Below, one piece after another: positions 298 through 8,494 of a stretch of DNA of 8,788 bases (positions are counted from its first letter, which is position 1; each line of letters opens with the position of its first letter). Below the pieces are notes generated by a model, which saw nothing but the letters and a program-made list of their open reading frames with translations, ran no database searches and was not told where the DNA came from. The stretch lies in the IMG/VR virus record IMGVR_UViG_2698536657_000019, one strand, 5' to 3'. The translations under genes were made by a program, and so were the position numbers. This DNA is from a virus (Duplodnaviria > Heunggongvirae > Uroviricota > Caudoviricetes).

Positions 298-710
298 GCG
301 TCGCACTCCCCGGCAGTCGCCGCCTGAAACGCCGCGCGGTACAGCACGAGAAGGCGCTGGTATTCACCGATAAAGTCTTCTGCGGTGTATATGCCTTTCA
401 TGGCCACGCTGTGCGTTGTCATTTCCAGAACAAGCGTCATCTCTGACGACGACCAGCTGATGGCGGTGCTGTCGGTTCCGTTGATGTGAAATAAACCAAA
501 ACCATCACCATCACCTTTCACGTCCACGCGGTAACGGTCGTCAACGGTGAAGGAGAAATCCCCGTATGTGGTGACGCGTCTGGCGGCCCGTTTACAGGCG
601 CGGCGGTAATAGTCGTGCCAGTCGTTCAGGCGGGAAGCCAGCCGGGGATCCACTGCCCACATCCAGTTAAAAAAATCCTGAATATCTGAAAGTCCCTTAA
701 CGTTCTTCAT
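294..710 (-). CDS. hypothetical protein, 138 aa
   Basis: ORF with SD GGAGG about 5 nt upstream of ATG 710. Its stop overlaps the next start (ATGA at 294..297). No recognisable motif. Confidence 0.6.
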   Translation of the reverse strand: MKNVKGLSDIQDFFNWMWAVDPRLASRLNDWHDYYRRACKRAARRVTTYGDFSFTVDDRYRVDVKGDGDGFGLFHINGTDSTAISWSSSEMTLVLEMTTHSVAMKGIYTAEDFIGEYQRLLVLYRAAFQAATAGECDA

Positions 711-778
711 GAGAACCTCCGGTAACAGACGTGCGGAAGCCTCCCGCGCACGGGTGCGGGATGGCTTCAGGATGTTGT

Positions 779-1006
779 TTAGTGGTGGTGTTGCTGGTTG
801 ATAAGGTCCTGCAGTTCTGCCAGGTCTTCGGCCAGATAGCTGAAGACTGCCGCGTAATACCCGGCAGCGATACCGTCGTTAAGTCGGTGTAATACGTTTG
901 ACTGCATGATGAAGGAGACAGATGCAGCCCGATGGAGTCTGCGGTTGATTTCAGTGCGGATGTGAAGACGCTCAGCGCGGGCGCGCTGTTGTTTGCGGTT
1001 TGCCAT
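779..1006 (-). CDS. hypothetical small protein, 75 aa, Arg-rich N-terminus and acidic C-terminus
   Basis: ORF with GAGG about 8 nt upstream of ATG 1006. First gene after the minus-strand terminator at about 1190. Confidence 0.5.
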   Translation of the reverse strand: MANRKQQRARAERLHIRTEINRRLHRAASVSFIMQSNVLHRLNDGIAAGYYAAVFSYLAEDLAELQDLINQQHHH

Positions 1007-1180
1007 GGTGTGGCCTCGTACGTAGTAAGTTCTGAAAACTCACCAACCCGAGGTTCCAAGCTCAGGGTGGCGAGACGTACAGGGTTGGAACTACCGGCTA
1101 CGCACGAACCCGGCCCGACCGAAGTCGGCCCCGTACGCCCCGCCATAATTCTGACGTGAAAAAGACGTGGCGATACAGTA

Positions 1181-1211
1181 CGCACAAAAAAACCGCTGGC
1201 GCGGTTGTGCG
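1181..1211 (-). terminator. candidate rho-independent terminator on the minus strand
   Basis: Minus strand reads AACCGC-GCCA-GCGGTT followed by a run of 7 T (plus strand A7 at 1186..1192). Flanking CGCAC/GTGCG extends the palindrome. The stem is short. Confidence 0.4.
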
Positions 1212-1389
1212 CGTGCATAGTCGGCGGGGTTCCAATCCCGGCACCTGTTTTATGAGGTGCGGGAAAACTGTAACCCGACCAGGCGAACGCTGGCAAGCGG
1301 TTTTTGTGTTGCGTGCTGATGTGGTTAGAATGTGGCGAATTAATATCACCTGGCAACTGGTGATTGTCTGCATACGCGGGGTGTTTCTG

Positions 1390-1854
1390 ATGAGTGATAA
1401 GCTCCCTTCTGATTACGACATTCTTTTTGACCTGTGGTACAGCTACTGGCTTGAACGTATTACATGTGTGTTTCACCGACGCGTTTCTGCTGCTCTGCGA
1501 ATCAGCGCCTTTCTGGTTGGTGTTGCGGCGTTTGTCCTGTGTGATTTTGTTGTGTTGGTACTCTTCAGTGTGGTTCTGTTTCTGCTTTGGCAGTGCATGG
1601 CTGCCAGTTTTGAACGCAGGGCTGAAAAGGCTGAATGGCAGGCAGTCAGTTACCAGCGCCTTATCAGTCAGCGCCATGTGATTAGTAAGGAATGCATGAT
1701 TGCGCGCCTCTCCTTTGTTGAGGAAAGTGACAGTCCCATCATGGAGTGCATGATTAATCTTGCCTGGAATAAAGCCTGTGAGGCGGTTGGCAGCTCTTCG
1801 CGCAATCATGTTTCGATCTCCGGTCGGTTACTCAGTCGCCTGTGCGGCTTTTGA
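1390..1854 (+). CDS. putative membrane protein, 154 aa, convergent with the early operon
   Basis: ATG at 1390. Hydrophobic stretch ISAFLVGVAAFVLCDFVVLVLFSVVLFLLW, CTG-dominated Leu codons. Possible promoter TAGAAT at 1326..1331. SD is weak (GGGG 9 nt upstream). Overlaps the 3' end of 1828..2178 by 27 nt. Competes with a minus-strand ORF starting at 1809 that has its own SD. Confidence 0.35.
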   Translation: MSDKLPSDYDILFDLWYSYWLERITCVFHRRVSAALRISAFLVGVAAFVLCDFVVLVLFSVVLFLLWQCMAASFERRAEKAEWQAVSYQRLISQRHVISKECMIARLSFVEESDSPIMECMINLAWNKACEAVGSSSRNHVSISGRLLSRLCGF

Positions 1855-2655: not shown

Positions 2656-3636
2656 TCACGTACTGGCAGGGGTAAACATCACGCAGTAAGTTGCATCTCC
2701 CGTTACCGGTCCGCAGTCCGGGCAGTAGCCACCGCCATAGTGACCGCAGGCGTCGCACTGTCTCAGGGTGGCGATAACTTCCGGTGCTGGTTCGCGGGTT
2801 CTTGCGCCAACGCTGCGTGGTGCCTGTATGCAGTTCATCCGGTAACCCTGATAAATGCGTCTGGTTTCCGGTGTGTCGGAATTGGAGATGGTGATGCTGG
2901 TCATGCCGCCCGTTTCCTGCGAAAGGCGGTCAAGTGCTGCCCTCAGGCGAACGTGCTCGTGTTCATCGAATGGTTTTCCGTAGGCGGTGAAATTGTCCCG
3001 GCCACTGAATTGCAGGTAAGGGGGATCGCAGTACACGCAAAGCGTGTTGCCCATGCCGAACAGGTGACTGGCAGAGTTCAGCGTATCCTTAAAATCTGCG
3101 TGGATAAGCAGCGTTCGGGTGCTGTTTGCCTTGTCTGCAAATGCGCGGATTTCATGCTCAGGGAAATAGGGCTTGCGGTAGCAGCCGAAAGGCACGTTAA
3201 AATCGCCTTTTCCGTTCACCCGGTACAGGCCATTAAAACAGTGCCGGTTGAGGTACAAAAACATGGCGGCCAGTCGCAGTTCACGGCGGTCGCTTATTCC
3301 CGTTCTGCTACTCAGGAAGGCATGATTCTCTGCGTTAAAGGTTTCGCGAATGATGAGATAGTCACCCCTGTTGTTGTGGTTCAGGAACAGGGTTTTCGCC
3401 TCGTCGATCAGACTGTCTGTGTTGTCCCGTGCTGCCCGCCAGAAATTAATCAGCGCACCATTGGAATCACCCAGGATGTAGCGTTTGTAACTGGTGTTCA
3501 TGAATACCGATGCGCCACCCACGAACGGTTCAACCAGGCAGTCAGCTTCTGGCAGATGCACCTTCAGTGTGTTCATGATGCGGCTTTTGCCACCCACCCA
3601 TTTCAGCGGTGTGCCGGATAACAGTTCTTTGCTCAT
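2656..3636 (-). CDS. Dam-family N6-adenine DNA methyltransferase with a C-terminal Cys-rich extension, 326 aa
   Basis: Motifs LKWVGGK, CLVEPFVGGASVF (SAM-binding FxGxG), FLYLNR--FNGLYR, FNVPFG-YRKPYFPE, catalytic DPPY (VYCDPPY), NFTAY. These line up with E. coli Dam from memory. C-terminus has CDACGHYGGGYCPDCG (C-x2-C-x7-C-x2-C). SD AGAGG upstream of ATG 3636. Confidence 0.85.
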   Translation of the reverse strand: MSKELLSGTPLKWVGGKSRIMNTLKVHLPEADCLVEPFVGGASVFMNTSYKRYILGDSNGALINFWRAARDNTDSLIDEAKTLFLNHNNRGDYLIIRETFNAENHAFLSSRTGISDRRELRLAAMFLYLNRHCFNGLYRVNGKGDFNVPFGCYRKPYFPEHEIRAFADKANSTRTLLIHADFKDTLNSASHLFGMGNTLCVYCDPPYLQFSGRDNFTAYGKPFDEHEHVRLRAALDRLSQETGGMTSITISNSDTPETRRIYQGYRMNCIQAPRSVGARTREPAPEVIATLRQCDACGHYGGGYCPDCGPVTGDATYCVMFTPAST

Positions 3637-3660
3637 AACGCGGCCTCTTTGTTATAGGTT

Positions 3661-3861
3661 TCATGCGTTAATAAATCCCATGACTTCCCGTTGTTCTTGC
3701 TGAGTAATCGCCAGCGAAAACCGATTCTTATCACCAGGTAGTTGTGGGGCTTTATGCGTGAAAAATTCCGCACACCGTTGCGGAATAAACGCAGCGATGC
3801 GCGGGCTTTTCTTTCCACGTTCAGGGGGGGGGCAGCAACACACATTCAGGATGGCGACCAT
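3661..3861 (-). CDS. hypothetical small protein, 66 aa; frame uncertain because of an internal C9 homopolymer
   Basis: SD GAGGTG 5-6 nt upstream of ATG 3861, directly after the exonuclease stop. Contains a C9 tract (plus strand G9 at 3824..3832) encoding CCCPPP. The overlapping 3633..3845 frame is also open. Confidence 0.45.
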   Translation of the reverse strand: MVAILNVCCCPPPERGKKSPRIAAFIPQRCAEFFTHKAPQLPGDKNRFSLAITQQEQREVMGFINA

Positions 3862-3869
3862 GCTTCACC

Positions 3870-4451
3870 TCATATGTTCAGGAATGGCGTTGTGAAGCGC
3901 TGCCAGATTTCTGACACGACCTTTGCCTGGTAAATGGCATCGCCCAGTGCAGTGTGAGCAATAGCCTCTTTTCCTGATCGGCCTGGCATTCTCCAGCCGG
4001 TTGATTCAGCCATGGCGATAAGCGGACGCATACAGCGCTCGTCCCAGTAACACCACGGAATACTTTTTTCTCCGGTTGTTCGCTTTATGGCGGATCTCAG
4101 GATTGGGAAATCGAAGGATGCGCCCTTGCACCATATGGTCAGTGAATTGCCCGGGCTTTCGTCATGCATATTGCGTGAAATGAACGCCAGAAATTCGGTC
4201 ACTGCTGCCAGCTCTGTTCCCTCTGCGTTGCGCAGGCAGGCCCTGGCCTCCACGGATTGTCCGGCCCACCATACAGCGGTTGTTGCACTGACGGTTCCGC
4301 CGTTGCGTTCTGAATCCACCGGGTCGATGAATTTCTCAAACTGCTTGCCCAGTTTTCCGGTGAACGGGTCGAAAAACACCGCGCCGATCGCGAATATGAC
4401 TGCGTCCGGTCCGTTACCCAGTGTTTCGGTGTCAATCATGAGATGGTTCAT
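3870..4451 (-). CDS. DnaQ-like DEDDh 3'-5' exonuclease, 193 aa
   Basis: Exo I motif MIDTETLG, Exo II region with FDFPIL, Exo III HTALGDAIYQA (H-x4-D). SD AGGAG about 7 nt upstream. ATG 4451 overlaps the upstream stop (ATGA). Confidence 0.8.
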   Translation of the reverse strand: MNHLMIDTETLGNGPDAVIFAIGAVFFDPFTGKLGKQFEKFIDPVDSERNGGTVSATTAVWWAGQSVEARACLRNAEGTELAAVTEFLAFISRNMHDESPGNSLTIWCKGASFDFPILRSAIKRTTGEKSIPWCYWDERCMRPLIAMAESTGWRMPGRSGKEAIAHTALGDAIYQAKVVSEIWQRFTTPFLNI

Positions 4452-4681
4452 TGTACGGGCTCCTTCGGTTCGTCCTGGCTGGTGAGCATTGCAATCAGTC
4501 GTTCAATGACTGAACAGGTTTCCAGCGGGGAGGTGTGTTTTTCTTTCGCTGTCTCGGTCAGCTCGCGCAGTAATTCGCAGATATGTGCACGCTCGGCTTT
4601 TCTTGCGGCCATGCTGATATGCGCATGATGGTTAGCTGGTCTGGCGGTTATTTCTCTGCCGGGTGATTCGGCTGTTCTCAT
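4448..4681 (-). CDS. hypothetical protein, 77 aa
   Basis: Start moved to ATG 4681 (MRTAESPG...) because SD AGGAG sits about 7 nt upstream. The ORF-track start at 4723 has no SD. Stop overlaps the exonuclease start. Confidence 0.55.
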   Translation of the reverse strand: MRTAESPGREITARPANHHAHISMAARKAERAHICELLRELTETAKEKHTSPLETCSVIERLIAMLTSQDEPKEPVQ

Positions 4682-4895
4682 TTGTTGACTCCTAAAAAAA
4701 AGACAAAGGGAACCCGAAGGCATGAATGCCTTAATTAATTGCTCGTGTGTTTTCTGGTGTTATTGCGTTCTTGTTTGCAGCTTCAGTTTATCCACAGATT
4801 TTCAGGGCTAACCAGGTGAGGTCACACACCATAAATATCACCCATACAGTGGCGATGGTGAGTATTGCTTTTACATTCTTCATAAAGTTTTTGCT

Positions 4896-5021
4896 TTATT
4901 TACGGCGTTTATCGCCGGTAAAGAATAATTCGATATCCTTCAGTGTGTGGATAATTCGCATAATGCCGATTGCCATAAGCACGGAGATAATCAGAATTAC
5001 CCATGAAAGGAATATGCTCAT
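4896..5021 (-). CDS. small single-pass membrane peptide, 41 aa (MSIFLSWVILIISVLMAIGIMRIIHTLKDIELFFTGDKRRK)
   Basis: Below the 60-aa cutoff of the ORF track; found by hand. ATG 5021 overlaps the TGA of 5018..5260 (ATGA at 5018..5021). Hydrophobic N-terminal helix, basic C-terminus. AT-rich region. Confidence 0.4.
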   Translation of the reverse strand: MSIFLSWVILIISVLMAIGIMRIIHTLKDIELFFTGDKRRK

Positions 5022-5260
5022 GCGGCTACCCCTGTGAAGTAAGGCTCGACAATTTCACCTTCAAACAGTTCTGTCATAATCGACTTTAATTCTTCCAGCG
5101 CTTCACGGTCATCGCTGCCCAGTGCGCAGTTGTATAGCCCCATAATTGCGCCGCGCAGTGAGTTACGAAGGCTTTCATCCTTAGTTACGCCCCGGTTTGC
5201 GAGTTCAAAGTGATAACGTTGCAACGCGTTATTGATAAGTATTTTGTAGGCTTCGATCAT
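5018..5260 (-). CDS. hypothetical protein, 80 aa
   Basis: SD AAGGA about 7 nt upstream of ATG 5260. Lies 18 nt after the stop of 5279..5614. Confidence 0.6.
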   Translation of the reverse strand: MIEAYKILINNALQRYHFELANRGVTKDESLRNSLRGAIMGLYNCALGSDDREALEELKSIMTELFEGEIVEPYFTGVAA

Positions 5261-5278
5261 GGCTGAATCCTTTATTTA

Positions 5279-5614
5279 TCAGTGCTTGCTTCCCGGATAT
5301 TGAAAACGCAGGCCGCTGATTAATCTGTCTGCCGTTCTTAAGGCTTCAAAAAATGTGAAGTCCTGTCCGAAGTAATCATCCCCGCGAGTCAGGGTGAAAT
5401 TAAATCGGCCAGTAACAGGGCTGCGAAAACTTTTGTGAATAACGATGCCAGTGTCGCCAATCGCCCAGGTGTGCTTTCCGGTTTGTTTTACCGGGTGACC
5501 GTCTGGTGTGGCATGGATTTCAGTGGTTACGGTCGCACTATTTTTACGGAAGTGCTGGCGTGCAACGTGGCGTTCGGTGTTGTTATTGATGCGTGCATTT
5601 CGTTGTTGCTTCAT
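5279..5614 (-). CDS. hypothetical protein, 111 aa
   Basis: ORF packed within the minus-strand early operon. No recognisable motif. Confidence 0.6.
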   Translation of the reverse strand: MKQQRNARINNNTERHVARQHFRKNSATVTTEIHATPDGHPVKQTGKHTWAIGDTGIVIHKSFRSPVTGRFNFTLTRGDDYFGQDFTFFEALRTADRLISGLRFQYPGSKH

Positions 5615-5639: not shown

Positions 5640-5834
5640 TTACAGTGATTCGTCTCTTGTCAGCCTAAAAATCACTTCAGCCATGACTTCGCTAATTACA
5701 TCGATCCCCTGATCGGTAAGGGCTTCTTTCCAGGCCTTGCTTGCACGTGTTGGATCCATCCTGCCTGATTGCTGTTGTATGATGATGAAGCGTAAATCGC
5801 TGTATAAGTCTTTTGTTTGAGTGGAGTCAGTCAT
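5640..5834 (-). CDS. hypothetical small protein, 64 aa
   Basis: SD GAAGG about 7 nt upstream of ATG 5834. Its start codon shares bases with the ATG of the plus-strand gene at 5833 (CATG), so one of the two starts may be wrong. Confidence 0.45.
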   Translation of the reverse strand: MTDSTQTKDLYSDLRFIIIQQQSGRMDPTRASKAWKEALTDQGIDVISEVMAEVIFRLTRDESL

Positions 5835-6270
5835 GTCAATACCTTCAAATCTTGATGTTTTTAATGAAACAGTTGGTAAAACTTTTGCGTTTCTTTATGA
5901 AACTTTTCCCCGCAAAGTAACTATTGATATTTGTGCCTTAACCGGTGTTTCAGAGCTGACTTTTGAAGAAGACCGATCCTCCAGGAGGCAACTAGTTGAA
6001 GCTCTTGAGCTTCGCCGTGACTCCATCGCATGGCTTGTTGATGCTGGTTATGTATCCGCTAAATCTTCTCCTCCGCATTACTTTTCTGATGCGGTTCTCA
6101 CGGCCAAAGGTCTTGAATTACTTAAGCTTGATCCAGAGTCACTTAAACAATCATTTGGCGACAAGCTTGTTGATGCAGCCAAGAGTGGTTCAATGGATGC
6201 GATAAAAAGCACCGCATCATCCGCTCTTACTACTGGGTTATCCTTTGCTTTCAAAAGTCTTCTTGGTTGA
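5833..6270 (+). CDS. hypothetical protein, 145 aa, AT-rich opposite-strand cargo gene
   Basis: ATG 5833 with SD GAGTGGAG about 6 nt upstream. The ORF-track GTG at 5821 has no SD. Visibly AT-rich, A/T-ending codons, opposite to the early operon. Followed by a perfect 8-bp hairpin. No recognisable catalytic motif; hydrophobic C-terminus SALTTGLSFAFKSLLG. Confidence 0.55.
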   Translation: MSIPSNLDVFNETVGKTFAFLYETFPRKVTIDICALTGVSELTFEEDRSSRRQLVEALELRRDSIAWLVDAGYVSAKSSPPHYFSDAVLTAKGLELLKLDPESLKQSFGDKLVDAAKSGSMDAIKSTASSALTTGLSFAFKSLLG

Positions 6271-6351: not shown

Positions 6352-6777
6352 TTAAGCTGCTTTTTTACTGATACGTTTATTCCGTAAACCAGCTGCTGGC
6401 TTAAATAAAAAAAGTCGGTTTTCCCATTCGTGCCATTCTTGCGGTGCGTTTTCAGTGAGTCGATCGCAGGCTTCATCCCACGCTTTCCGGTTGATGTAGA
6501 GTTCGGCGTTTCCGCCAGGCTTGAGAGGGTCCGCCATGTACACAGCGGGTAATTTCCCTGCTTTTGCCATGCTCACGATGGCGTCAACGGTCTTGCCGAT
6601 ATACATCGCAAACCCTTCTTTTGACAGGAGATGAGAAGGGTTTTGTGAAAGCCTGATTTCCTGGCGTTCAGGGGCTTTGCGCCCGGTCTTTTGGTGTGCG
6701 GTTTCTGGCGCATCTGTCAACTGATCGCACTGTGTTTCGGCAGGCGATTCAGGCGCGTTTTGAGTGACTTCTTGCAT
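6352..6777 (-). CDS. cox: Cox-like excisionase / transcriptional regulator with an N-terminal extension, 141 aa
   Basis: C-terminal half (FAMYIGKTVDAIVSMAKAGKLPAVYMADP...AW) resembles P2 Cox (FAKLIGK...GKLPVIDMTDP...AW) from memory. Start set at ATG 6777 with strong SD GGAGGA about 7 nt upstream. Divergent from the repressor. Confidence 0.75.
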   Translation of the reverse strand: MQEVTQNAPESPAETQCDQLTDAPETAHQKTGRKAPERQEIRLSQNPSHLLSKEGFAMYIGKTVDAIVSMAKAGKLPAVYMADPLKPGGNAELYINRKAWDEACDRLTENAPQEWHEWENRLFLFKPAAGLRNKRISKKAA

Positions 6778-6884
6778 CTGGTATCCTCCGTTATTGGTGC
6801 TATTTCTATTTAGCACCAGTTAGAGCCGCCTAGATTGTCTCTAGGTGTGTTTGTTGATGTATAAACTAAGAGAGTTAACTCACT
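6778..6884. promoter_or_regulatory. immunity switch region between cox and the repressor, with operator-like repeats
   Basis: 107-bp intergenic region between divergent cox and C. Perfect inverted repeat TGGTGCTA-N8-TAGCACCA (6795..6818), CCTAGA-N5-TCTAGG (6829..6845), TAG motifs phased at about 10 bp (6811, 6821, 6831, 6842), and a -10-like TATAAA (6860..6865) upstream of C. Confidence 0.6.
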
Positions 6885-7184
6885 ATGTCAACTAACGTAG
6901 GTGAAAAAATTAGAATCATGCGTAAGTCTGAAATGCTTACACAAGAAAAAATGGCTGAAATTACAGGGCTCACGGTAGCGGCCCTGCGTCAATATGAACA
7001 GGGGAGAAATGAGCCAAATCTTGAATCCACAAAAAAGCTGCTCAAGTCTCCCGTCTTCCGTAAATACCGTGACTGGTTTTTGTTCGATGAGGTCGAACCA
7101 AAGGCCGGGCAGGTGGTACCGGCTCTCGCACACATTGGGCAAAGCGAAGCGGAATCATCCCACTCCGGCAAGAAGACTGGTTAA
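6885..7184 (+). CDS. C: P2 C-type immunity repressor (XRE-like HTH), 99 aa
   Basis: 99 aa, HTH segment LTQEKMAEITGLTVAALRQYEQG, C-terminus APALAHIGQSE...SHSGKKTG resembling P2 C as remembered. Lies immediately upstream of and co-oriented with int. Confidence 0.8.
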   Translation: MSTNVGEKIRIMRKSEMLTQEKMAEITGLTVAALRQYEQGRNEPNLESTKKLLKSPVFRKYRDWFLFDEVEPKAGQVVPALAHIGQSEAESSHSGKKTG

Positions 7185-7250
7185 CGGTCCATCTGGCCTT
7201 TATTTCTCAAAATTGTGATCAAGATGATGTTTTCATTGGGGGGCTTCCTT

Positions 7251-8246
7251 ATGTCGATTAAGAAGCTCGCTGATGGCAAATACTGTGTGGACGTGCGGCC
7301 TGCTGGATCTGAAGGAAGAAGATTTCGGCGGCGATTTCCTACCCGTGGTGAAGCGGCGATGTATGAACGCCATGTTCTGACGCATTATCACGATAAGGAC
7401 TGGGTCGAAAAACCTATTGAACGTAAAGCGTTAAGCGATCTTCTGGAACTGTGGTGGGTGTACCACGGTAAGAATCATCGTTATGGCGCGATGAATCGGG
7501 TCAGAATTGAAGCGGTTCTTCGTGATATGCAAGAGCTTGGTATTAACAGAAGTGACCACTTAACCCGAAAAAATATTATCAGATATCGCCTTGAATTAAT
7601 GAATCGCGGAATTAAGCAGTCAACGGTAAATCGTTATTGTGCAATGATGAGCGGTTTCTTTGAAAAGCTGATTGATGTTGAAGAGTTTGTGGGTGATAAC
7701 CCGTTTCACGAGATACGCAAGCTAACAATTAATCAGCCGGAAATGGCTTATCTTGCACATGATGATATTCCCAGGCTAACCGCACTTTTATCTGGCGATA
7801 ATCTTAAGGCTGTATTGTTAAGCCTGGCTACAGGCGGGCGCTGGGGTGAAGTTGCCAATATTAAAGGTGAACACATAATTGGTGGGAAGGTTATTTTCAT
7901 GGAGACAAAGAATGGATCGCGGCGGGTTATTCCTATAGCTAAAGATCTTGAATCTCTGATTAAAGTCAAAGCGACGGGAAGATTAATGAACCCCAGTTAT
8001 GCGATAGTCAGAAGTGCAATAAGGACTGTGCGGCCTGATTTACCAGTCGGTCAGTCTGTGCATGTTTTACGGCACACATTCGCAACTCATTTCATGATAA
8101 ATGGAGGGAACATTATTACCCTTCAGCGTATTTTAGGGCACAGCACAATTCAGCAGACAATGACCTATGCGCACTTTGCACCTGATTATCTCCAGGACGC
8201 GGTAAGGTTCAATCCGGTTGCGGAGTTGTCCAGATTTTGCCCATAA
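7251..8246 (+). CDS. int: P2-like tyrosine integrase, 331 aa
   Basis: N-terminus MSIKKLADGKYCVDVRPAG parallels P2 Int. Catalytic motifs TGGRWGE, HVLRHTFATHF, LGHSTIQQTMTYAHF (Tyr nucleophile). Start moved from the ORF-track GTG 7215 to ATG 7251. Confidence 0.9.
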   Translation: MSIKKLADGKYCVDVRPAGSEGRRFRRRFPTRGEAAMYERHVLTHYHDKDWVEKPIERKALSDLLELWWVYHGKNHRYGAMNRVRIEAVLRDMQELGINRSDHLTRKNIIRYRLELMNRGIKQSTVNRYCAMMSGFFEKLIDVEEFVGDNPFHEIRKLTINQPEMAYLAHDDIPRLTALLSGDNLKAVLLSLATGGRWGEVANIKGEHIIGGKVIFMETKNGSRRVIPIAKDLESLIKVKATGRLMNPSYAIVRSAIRTVRPDLPVGQSVHVLRHTFATHFMINGGNIITLQRILGHSTIQQTMTYAHFAPDYLQDAVRFNPVAELSRFCP

Positions 8247-8363: not shown

Positions 8364-8494
8364 CGATGTATCTCGCGATTTTTTTTTGTAACTTTTCCAT
8401 CTTTTGCTTTTCTCTCCGAGCCGCTTTCCATATCTGCAATCGCATAAAAAACTCTGCTGGCGTTCACAAATGTGCAGGGGTAAAACGTTTCCTG

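Follow-up and report, generated by a model that had tools for sequence, protein, structure and literature searches.

What does a conspicuously AT-rich stretch of 340 nt contribute to the tightly packed operon that surrounds it at positions 4682..5021 of IMG/VR virus record IMGVR_UViG_2698536657_000019? A first-pass annotation, made from the sequence alone, had described the stretch as an island that interrupts the operon and encodes two small hydrophobic peptides, possibly toxic ones, with an inverted repeat and an A-run beside them that might mark a terminator or an antisense transcript. We analyzed the locus within the whole 8,788-nt stretch of DNA, hereafter the window, which represents the immunity and early region of a P2-related Escherichia coli prophage of the P88 type (Xuanwuvirus, Peduoviridae). 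With slightly more than even confidence, we read the stretch as coding sequence plus a regulatory leader inside the early lytic operon driven by Pe in a P88-like prophage, and its two peptides as inner-membrane accessory factors of the early lytic phase.

When the sequence was read again, the features and their positions proved exact. They are a 41-amino-acid (aa) open reading frame (ORF), here ORF1 (MSIFLSWVILIISVLMAIGIMRIIHTLKDIELFFTGDKRRK, 4896..5021, minus strand, with its ATG at 5021..5019); a 31-aa frame, ORF2 (MKNVKAILTIATVWVIFMVCDLTWLALKICG, 4788..4883 including the stop codon, minus strand); the inverted repeat AAGGCATGAATGCCTT (4717..4732); the palindrome AATTAATT (4733..4740); and the A8 run (4694..4701). 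The low G+C content (GC) of the interval was also evident, at 0.394 compared with 0.498 over the window as a whole; a value this low or lower was reached by just 0.02% of all 340-nt windows. The idea that the operon is interrupted held in part: there is a non-coding leader of just 106 nt (4682..4787), but the remainder of the AT-rich stretch is coding. GC at third codon positions (GC3) was 0.50 in ORF1 and 0.53 in ORF2, and 0.48-0.60 in the neighboring genes, while values at the first and second positions (GC1 and GC2) of the two ORFs were 0.29-0.38. The low GC at codon positions 1 and 2 arises because the peptides are rich in Ile, Leu, Phe, Val, Met and Lys.

ORF1 is very likely a gene. It had been described as a single-helix hydrophobic peptide coupled to the upstream gene by ATGA, and both parts of that description were borne out: its ATG overlaps the TGA (5020..5018) of an 80-aa DUF4754 gene (5018..5260, minus strand; Pfam PF15946, E-value 1e-15), and it behaves as a real gene under purifying selection. 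Our survey of E. coli genomes, IMG/VR and metagenomes gathered 107 loci, which reduced to 53 unique DUF4754/peptide pairs with 24 distinct DUF4754 proteins. A small hydrophobic ORF starting in an ATGA overlap with DUF4754 was present in every unique pair (53/53) and at every locus, the window included (107/107), and the linked peptide was kept even where DUF4754 identity falls to 28-31%. Across 46 unique nucleotide sequences, the pooled ratio of non-synonymous to synonymous change per site (pN/pS) was 0.28 in the ORF1 frame; of the other frames, four gave values above 1 and an antisense frame that shares wobble positions gave 0.37. In the comparison of the window with P88, 19 of 24.5 synonymous and 14 of 83.5 non-synonymous sites had changed (p=2e-8).

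The relatives of ORF1 are few in kind and numerous in copies. Megablast against phage records returned no match to the window; distant blastn and tblastn searches tied the ORF1 region to P88, P884B11, 520873, PhiR44_2 and Citrobacter phage Shae_phiSM. Its closest known relatives are P88 gp07 (YP_009113050.1, 37 aa) and the RefSeq homologues WP_000021704.1 and WP_000021656.1. ORF1 is 68% identical to P88 gp07 over residues 1-41 (tblastn, E-value 2e-10), other Xuanwuvirus phages were matched too, and gp07 occupies the same place, joined by ATGA to DUF4754, with a transmembrane helix followed by an amphipathic tail. The two types differ in that the window peptide, at 41 aa, has an extra KRRK tail, and in that P88 lacks ORF2 and has a different hairpin in the spacer that follows. 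The family is narrow, with 14 cluster representatives among 1.84 billion proteins and only Xuanwuvirus phages recovered by tblastn. A query of 4660..5030 (distant blastn) matched 466 of 5426 complete E. coli genomes (~9%), nearly all over the ORF1 part, and every sampled ORF1 match in E. coli genomes sits at a DUF4754 gene. The exact ORF1 sequence was found on 956 E. coli contigs. The nearest complete E. coli genomes are ~95% identical to the window, with the same gene order, and adjoin dmsA. The Prokaryotic Genome Annotation Pipeline (PGAP) labels ORF1 a hypothetical protein, and the P88 record names its 37-aa homologue a membrane protein.

Divergent members of the family extend this picture. 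After DUF4754, locus L111 has a 48-aa peptide and loci L003 and L106 a 34-aa peptide, and an 'SW' motif in the helix is common to all. The 34-aa hydrophobic ORF (MSSTLIIIASWVILLASFVVSYFVVKLLTQYLNL; L003 1521..1725, minus strand, and L106) is coupled to DUF4754 by ATGA in E. coli JNEC-KY179, has no RefSeq annotation, and is probably a divergent ORF1 homologue. A contig labeled Vagococcus sp. WN89Y (L006) carries a P88-type DUF4754/peptide locus near-identical to those of E. coli, and its label is probably due to contamination or mislabeling.

Residues 3-21 of ORF1 have a mean Kyte-Doolittle hydropathy of 2.75 and are predicted to form a transmembrane helix; residues 20-34 are predicted to be amphipathic (hydrophobic moment, muH, 0.72 over residues 20-30), with a positively charged tail. 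AlphaFold2 modeled ORF1 as one continuous helix over residues 2-38 (predicted local distance difference test, pLDDT, 84) and DUF4754 as a three-helix bundle (pLDDT 88), for which a fold search against the PDB returned no informative match (all E-values >1). ORF1 would be translated by coupling to DUF4754, aided by a weak AGGGG Shine-Dalgarno sequence, and would sit in the inner membrane in an N-out/C-in orientation that places the amphipathic, positively charged tail at the cytoplasmic face. The constant ATGA cassette suggests that DUF4754 and ORF1 are co-expressed. A mosaic breakpoint falls exactly at the DUF4754/ORF1 junction (~5021..5026), where several E. coli prophages that match the window from 4400 to 5026 change to a DUF4754 allele only 28-29% identical.

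Downstream of ORF1 the window holds the second hydrophobic frame. ORF2 is likely a gene as well, though a recent and rare one. The first-pass annotation had called it possible and had remarked on its lack of a Shine-Dalgarno sequence. That lack was confirmed from the preceding sequence AGCAAAAACTTT, and the frame behaves like a gene under purifying selection. In 30 loci we found seven ORF2 protein variants, all of them open (7/7) and each beginning 12 nt past the ORF1 stop, and they stay open over 10-20 substitutions. One variant carries an in-frame 3-nt insertion; in another case, a 1-nt insertion near the end replaces the final residues and adds two codons (33 rather than 31 aa). Pooled pN/pS was 0.38 in the ORF2 frame, whereas the remaining five gave 0.85-2.05. 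The deepest pair (L092 vs L091) differed at 8 of 19 synonymous and 5 of 65 non-synonymous sites (p=0.001). Substitutions were mostly of one hydrophobic residue for another, and a polar residue in mid-helix was kept (Q18, or D21 in the window). A transmembrane segment is predicted at about residues 7-25, and the peptide would probably insert into the membrane N-in.

ORF2 has a narrow distribution. It is limited to a sub-lineage: coverage of the 4660..5030 query (ORF1, ORF2 and leader) reached 80% or more in 21 complete E. coli genomes, and P88-type loci are without ORF2. It was unannotated in all four RefSeq records inspected, and an exact sequence look-up showed that a few submitters had annotated it (KGM81220.1, DAU42316.1 and DAY48760.1). 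In the sister lineages the peptide stop is followed by an A-rich spacer with AACACCAGA, a short tetraloop hairpin, ~20 nt, a Shine-Dalgarno sequence and then the next gene. The window becomes homologous to loci of the L003 type from ~4763 on, and the body of ORF2 (~4765..4895) had no match beyond ORF2-bearing loci in distant blastn searches of complete E. coli genomes; ORF2 therefore lies on an insertion of ~130 nt (~4765..4895, minus strand) relative to the sister layout. Birth of ORF2 de novo from the P88-type spacer was also considered, but the likeness amounts to 21 A-rich nt at the ORF2 start and is significant for some pairs only, so an insertion is preferred. A hairpin predicted inside ORF2 (4837..4856) was not kept in relatives when these were read by eye.

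The spacer from the ORF1 stop to the ORF2 start (AGCAAAAACUUU, 4884..4895, minus strand) is A/U-rich, is without a Shine-Dalgarno sequence and measures exactly 12 nt in every locus compared (nine loci). Given the missing Shine-Dalgarno sequence and this fixed gap, we infer that termination at the ORF1 stop followed by re-initiation is the simplest route of translation: ribosomes finishing ORF1 would probably start again at ORF2.

The non-coding remainder of the stretch belongs to the next gene, which encodes a 77-aa protein (phrog_22206; PHROG match, E-value 1e-42) at 4448..4681 on the minus strand. The gene starts at 4681 and not at the ATG at 4723 chosen by the ORF finder; PGAP starts the homologue at the equivalent ATG. 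In the sense direction its conserved leader (82 nt, 4682..4764, minus strand) contains, in order, the AAUAACACCAGAAAACA block, AAUUAAUU, the hairpin, the segment CGGGUUCCCUUUGUC, a U8 tract, AGGAG, 7 nt, and the AUG at 4681. The hairpin, AAGGCA-UUCA-UGCCUU (4717..4732, minus strand), has 6 bp with three G-C pairs, a tetraloop and a predicted stability of -5.8 kcal/mol. The U8 tract (4694..4701, minus strand; A8 on the plus strand) lies directly 5' of the AGGAG Shine-Dalgarno sequence (4689..4693). Only two A/T homopolymer runs of at least 8 occur in the window, this one and another at 8379.

The leader is 90-98% identical between lineages, compared with 75-91% for the 77-aa gene. Among relatives the hairpin stem is invariant, the loop varies between U and C, and the tract is T6, T7 or T8 long. 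Shuffling the interval produces a perfect 7+7 inverted repeat in ~18% of cases, and 10 such repeats occur in the window, so the significance of this one lies in its conservation. The leader is common to L003 and L106, whose upstream peptide differs. The repeat and the A-run had been raised as a possible terminator or antisense unit of the peptides, and this does not hold, since both travel with the leader of the next gene.

Loci of the P88 type fill the equivalent slot with an unrelated 5-bp tetraloop hairpin, UCCGY-NNNN-RCGGA. It is 99.2% paired over 26 distinct sequences, shows a compensatory C-G to U-A change in three, and includes two wobble changes tolerated only in sense-strand RNA. The conserved form AUCCGY-NNNN-RCGGAGGUAUUCGCA is found in L002 (2985..3025, minus strand) and ~70 other P88-type loci and not in the window. 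This hairpin comes after the small-peptide gene whatever gene is next, and it is kept where DUF4754 is 30% identical (L111). A 14-codon micro-ORF (MKTIRINGGIRTRK-like, ending AAA TAA) over the P88-type hairpin in many loci, among them L019, L020 and L111, is probably not a gene, because elsewhere its start is not conserved (GTA, CTG, CAA, CAG, ATT).

Intercistronic hairpins and U-rich translational enhancers are both established elements and, together with conservation, they form the basis for our reading of the leader. The hairpin would work at the level of RNA and control how strongly the distal early genes are expressed, whether through transcript stability, processing, a pause or weak attenuation. 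For the 77-aa gene, which, unlike its neighbors, is not translationally coupled, the U-tract may serve as an S1-type translational enhancer.

The strongest alternative concerns the same sequence. The hairpin and U-rich tail (4694..4732) could stop transcription weakly, as an intrinsic terminator or attenuator comparable to tR1 of phage 186. The early operon would then fall into two parts, a proximal one that runs from cox through the peptides and a distal one (77-aa gene, exonuclease, Dam and replication) that needs read-through. The 186 record describes tR1 as 'one of a number of transcription terminators ... anti-terminated during early lytic', and tR1 lies in the matching position, after fil/dhr, with TTAATTAATTAA before it and a Shine-Dalgarno sequence and a 77-aa gene after it. 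The greater conservation of the leader relative to the 77-aa gene, and the presence of a hairpin in the same slot in other lineages, are also consistent with an attenuator. The likeness between the two phages extends to a repressor/Cox-type switch, small host-directed genes, and an AT-rich stretch with hairpin, Shine-Dalgarno sequence, ~77-aa gene and 3'-5' exonuclease. The sequences themselves show no similarity, neither Fil (75 aa) nor Dhr (66 aa) is a transmembrane peptide, and a function for tR1 is documented for 186 only. Of the features of an intrinsic terminator, the window hairpin has a G+C-rich stem of at least 5 bp, marginally so, but no U-tract directly 3' of it: U8 begins 15 nt past the stem, with CGGGUUCCCUUUGUC between. 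The stability of the stem is low for this role, the site was not called by a terminator scan, and the P88-type hairpin lacks any U-tract. We consider an attenuator possible but doubtful.

Several observations weigh against our reading of the stretch as a whole. The hairpin is weak, the leader plus ORF2 region folds no better than shuffles (z +0.3 to +1.1), and several of the loci used for leader conservation had been retrieved by a hairpin search pattern, which was not the case for L001, L003, L012 and L013. Near-identical ORF1 alleles follow DUF4754 alleles that are 28-29% identical to that of the window; with the breakpoint at the junction, this weakens the argument for specific co-evolution, and the ATGA link may reflect needs of expression and translation rather than a physical partnership of DUF4754 and ORF1. 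Literature searches on DUF4754, Xuanwuvirus, P88 and the peptide sequences yielded no report of a function. For ORF2, the evidence comes from seven variants that are not independent, the Shine-Dalgarno sequence is missing, and an open frame of 31 codons is expected in ~12% of cases by chance at the composition of ORF2.

These last points, together with the absence of ORF2 from most P88-like phages and from the PGAP annotation of four RefSeq genomes, favor an alternative in which only ORF1 is a gene and ORF2 is an open frame that arose by chance in untranslated spacer peculiar to the lineage. The pattern of change argues against it: all seven variants are open despite the substitutions, the 3-nt in-frame indel and the terminal 1-nt indel, low pN/pS is confined to the ORF2 frame, synonymous changes are in significant excess, the hydrophobic character is kept, and the 12-nt gap is fixed. 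A chance frame thus seems unlikely to us, and we retain ORF2 as a gene.

Whether the peptides are dedicated toxins was the suggestion that gave the locus its first interest, either as type I toxins with an antisense RNA at ~4690..4740 or as Kil-like inhibitors of division or of the membrane. Their size and single hydrophobic helix recall Hok, TisB, Ldr and Ibs, and their place, an early lytic operon, is one where toxic genes aimed at the host occur, among them fil and dhr of 186. The hok gene is translated through an upstream ORF, mok, and the dependence of ORF2 on ORF1, as proposed here, would recall the mok/hok arrangement. The type I toxins Hok/Gef, TisB, Ldr, Ibs, ShoB, DinQ and ZorO resemble ORF1 and ORF2 in being 20-50 aa long with one hydrophobic helix, but the window peptides match no family, lack both their own promoter and a long structured 5' untranslated region, and are encoded within a polycistronic operon; no antisense RNA family was detected. 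No Pfam, PHROG, NCBIfam or PADLOC family, whether toxin, Kil or defense, was found for either ORF, in keeping with the first-pass annotation, which had recognized none; a match to TatA at E-value 0.11 was non-significant and was discarded. Rfam searches of 4400..5300 gave no antisense family even at E<=1.

Promoter-like and terminator-like sites across the region did not exceed shuffled expectation, and none was conserved on the plus strand. The sole plus-strand promoter-like site overlaps the ORF1 coding sequence, and its -35-like hexamer, compared by eye, is not kept in P88. ORF1 overlaps its upstream gene and so is not an independent unit, and the hairpin and U-tract go with the downstream gene and not with the peptides. 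The architecture therefore does not bear out the label 'type I toxin-like': the hydrophobic peptide is there, but the independent transcription unit and the known toxin family are not.

Lambda Kil, Rac KilR, P1 Icd and SPO1 gp56 are small early-lytic proteins that act on host targets, and SPO1 gp56 is membrane-anchored; most of this group are not single-helix membrane peptides. We found no homology between these four proteins and ORF1 or ORF2, searches of Pfam, PHROG and NCBIfam returned no Kil-like match, and 186 Fil, compared by eye, is unlike either peptide. There is no evidence for ORF1 and ORF2 as a toxin-antitoxin pair. Dedicated toxins are in our view quite improbable, and toxicity of the peptides on over-expression is plausible.

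It is more improbable still that the stretch is a moron of foreign composition, such as a cassette for lysogenic conversion or superinfection exclusion expressed from the prophage. Among 340-nt stretches of the window GC is at its lowest here, and ORF2 lies on an insertion. The GC3 of both ORFs is, however, like that of the flanking genes, with the deficit confined to codon positions 1 and 2; no flanking promoter or terminator rises above chance; ORF1 is an ancestral, invariant partner of DUF4754; and the peptide genes are in an operon kept off by the C repressor in the lysogen. Least credible, to the point of dismissal, is that the plus-strand ORF 4747..5037 (96 aa) is the real gene and the minus-strand peptides its antisense shadows, a condition under which the first-pass annotation would have given up its own proposal: the frame exists in the window, and one ORF1 antisense frame has the low pN/pS expected from shared wobble positions, but it has no Pfam or PHROG match, is broken by stops in L001, L091 and L094 (longest stop-free stretch 38-39 codons), and would oppose a tightly packed minus-strand operon.

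What the peptides do can be approached through their position and form. They occupy the slot of the 186 host-takeover genes fil and dhr in the early operon, and they are predicted bitopic helices, with a juxtamembrane amphipathic tail. Because of these two features, an accessory action on the host inner membrane appears, by analogy, to be their most likely role, which we propose tentatively. As early-lytic accessory factors they might target the envelope, division or transport machinery, and growth inhibition on over-expression would be likely.

A more elaborate proposal is that DUF4754 and ORF1 form an obligate two-part host-takeover module, in which a soluble three-helix protein is delivered with, or tethered to, an inner-membrane peptide and the target is a host envelope or division protein. 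ORF2 would then be a second peptide, captured recently, that inserts with the opposite topology and pairs with ORF1 in the membrane. Independently of this, the hairpin slot, filled by two unrelated hairpins in different lineages, could be a conserved RNA checkpoint timing the distal early genes. Taken jointly, we regard these ideas as speculative and unlikely to hold in full.

The genes around the stretch complete the picture of an early region. The integrase gene (7215..8246, plus strand) and a helix-turn-helix C-type repressor gene (6885..7184, plus strand) face the minus-strand early operon, of which cox (6352..6816, minus strand) is the first gene. A DUF4761 gene (5279..5614, minus strand) lies upstream of the DUF4754 gene. 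Beyond the 77-aa gene, whose stop overlaps the start of its neighbor, are a gene for an Rv2179c-like 3'-5' exonuclease (3870..4451, minus strand) and a Dam methylase gene (2656..3636, minus strand). Between these two, a 70-aa ORF (3633..3845, minus strand) contains a ParE-like toxin domain (PF24732, E-value 1e-18).

Two other regions of the window have features of their own. Between cox and the rest of the operon is a low-GC stretch (~470 nt, 0.37-0.46) that holds a 149-aa plus-strand ORF (5821..6270; phrog_2266, E-value 2e-31) and is missing in the closest E. coli relative, L001; the ORF resembles a moron that is read in the direction opposite to the early transcript. Rfam matches to the C4 antisense RNA (RF01695, 82.6 bits, 1063..1150) and to the Hfq-binding RNA isrK (RF01394, 67.1 bits, 1186..1260), with a weak c4-a1b1 target match, fall inside or beside a 370-aa ORF (697..1809) with an Ash/regulator-like domain. 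The region (1063..1273, minus strand) may thus hold a c4/ant-like module of the P1/P7 type, or an IsrK/anti-Q-like one, on the same early strand.

Small membrane peptides of phages are under-annotated and mostly uncharacterized. ORF1 was already catalogued as a hypothetical protein, and ORF2 and the conservation of the leader are small additions to it. The analysis shows that one such family is present in ~9% of complete E. coli genomes as an invariant coupled pair with DUF4754, that a second peptide gene beside it has been missed by RefSeq annotation, and that an intercistronic leader with its hairpin is under more constraint than the adjacent protein. Should the peptides turn out to act on a membrane target in the host, they would serve as compact tools or leads in the study of envelope or division functions; otherwise, the gain would be a modest one in the annotation of these prophages.

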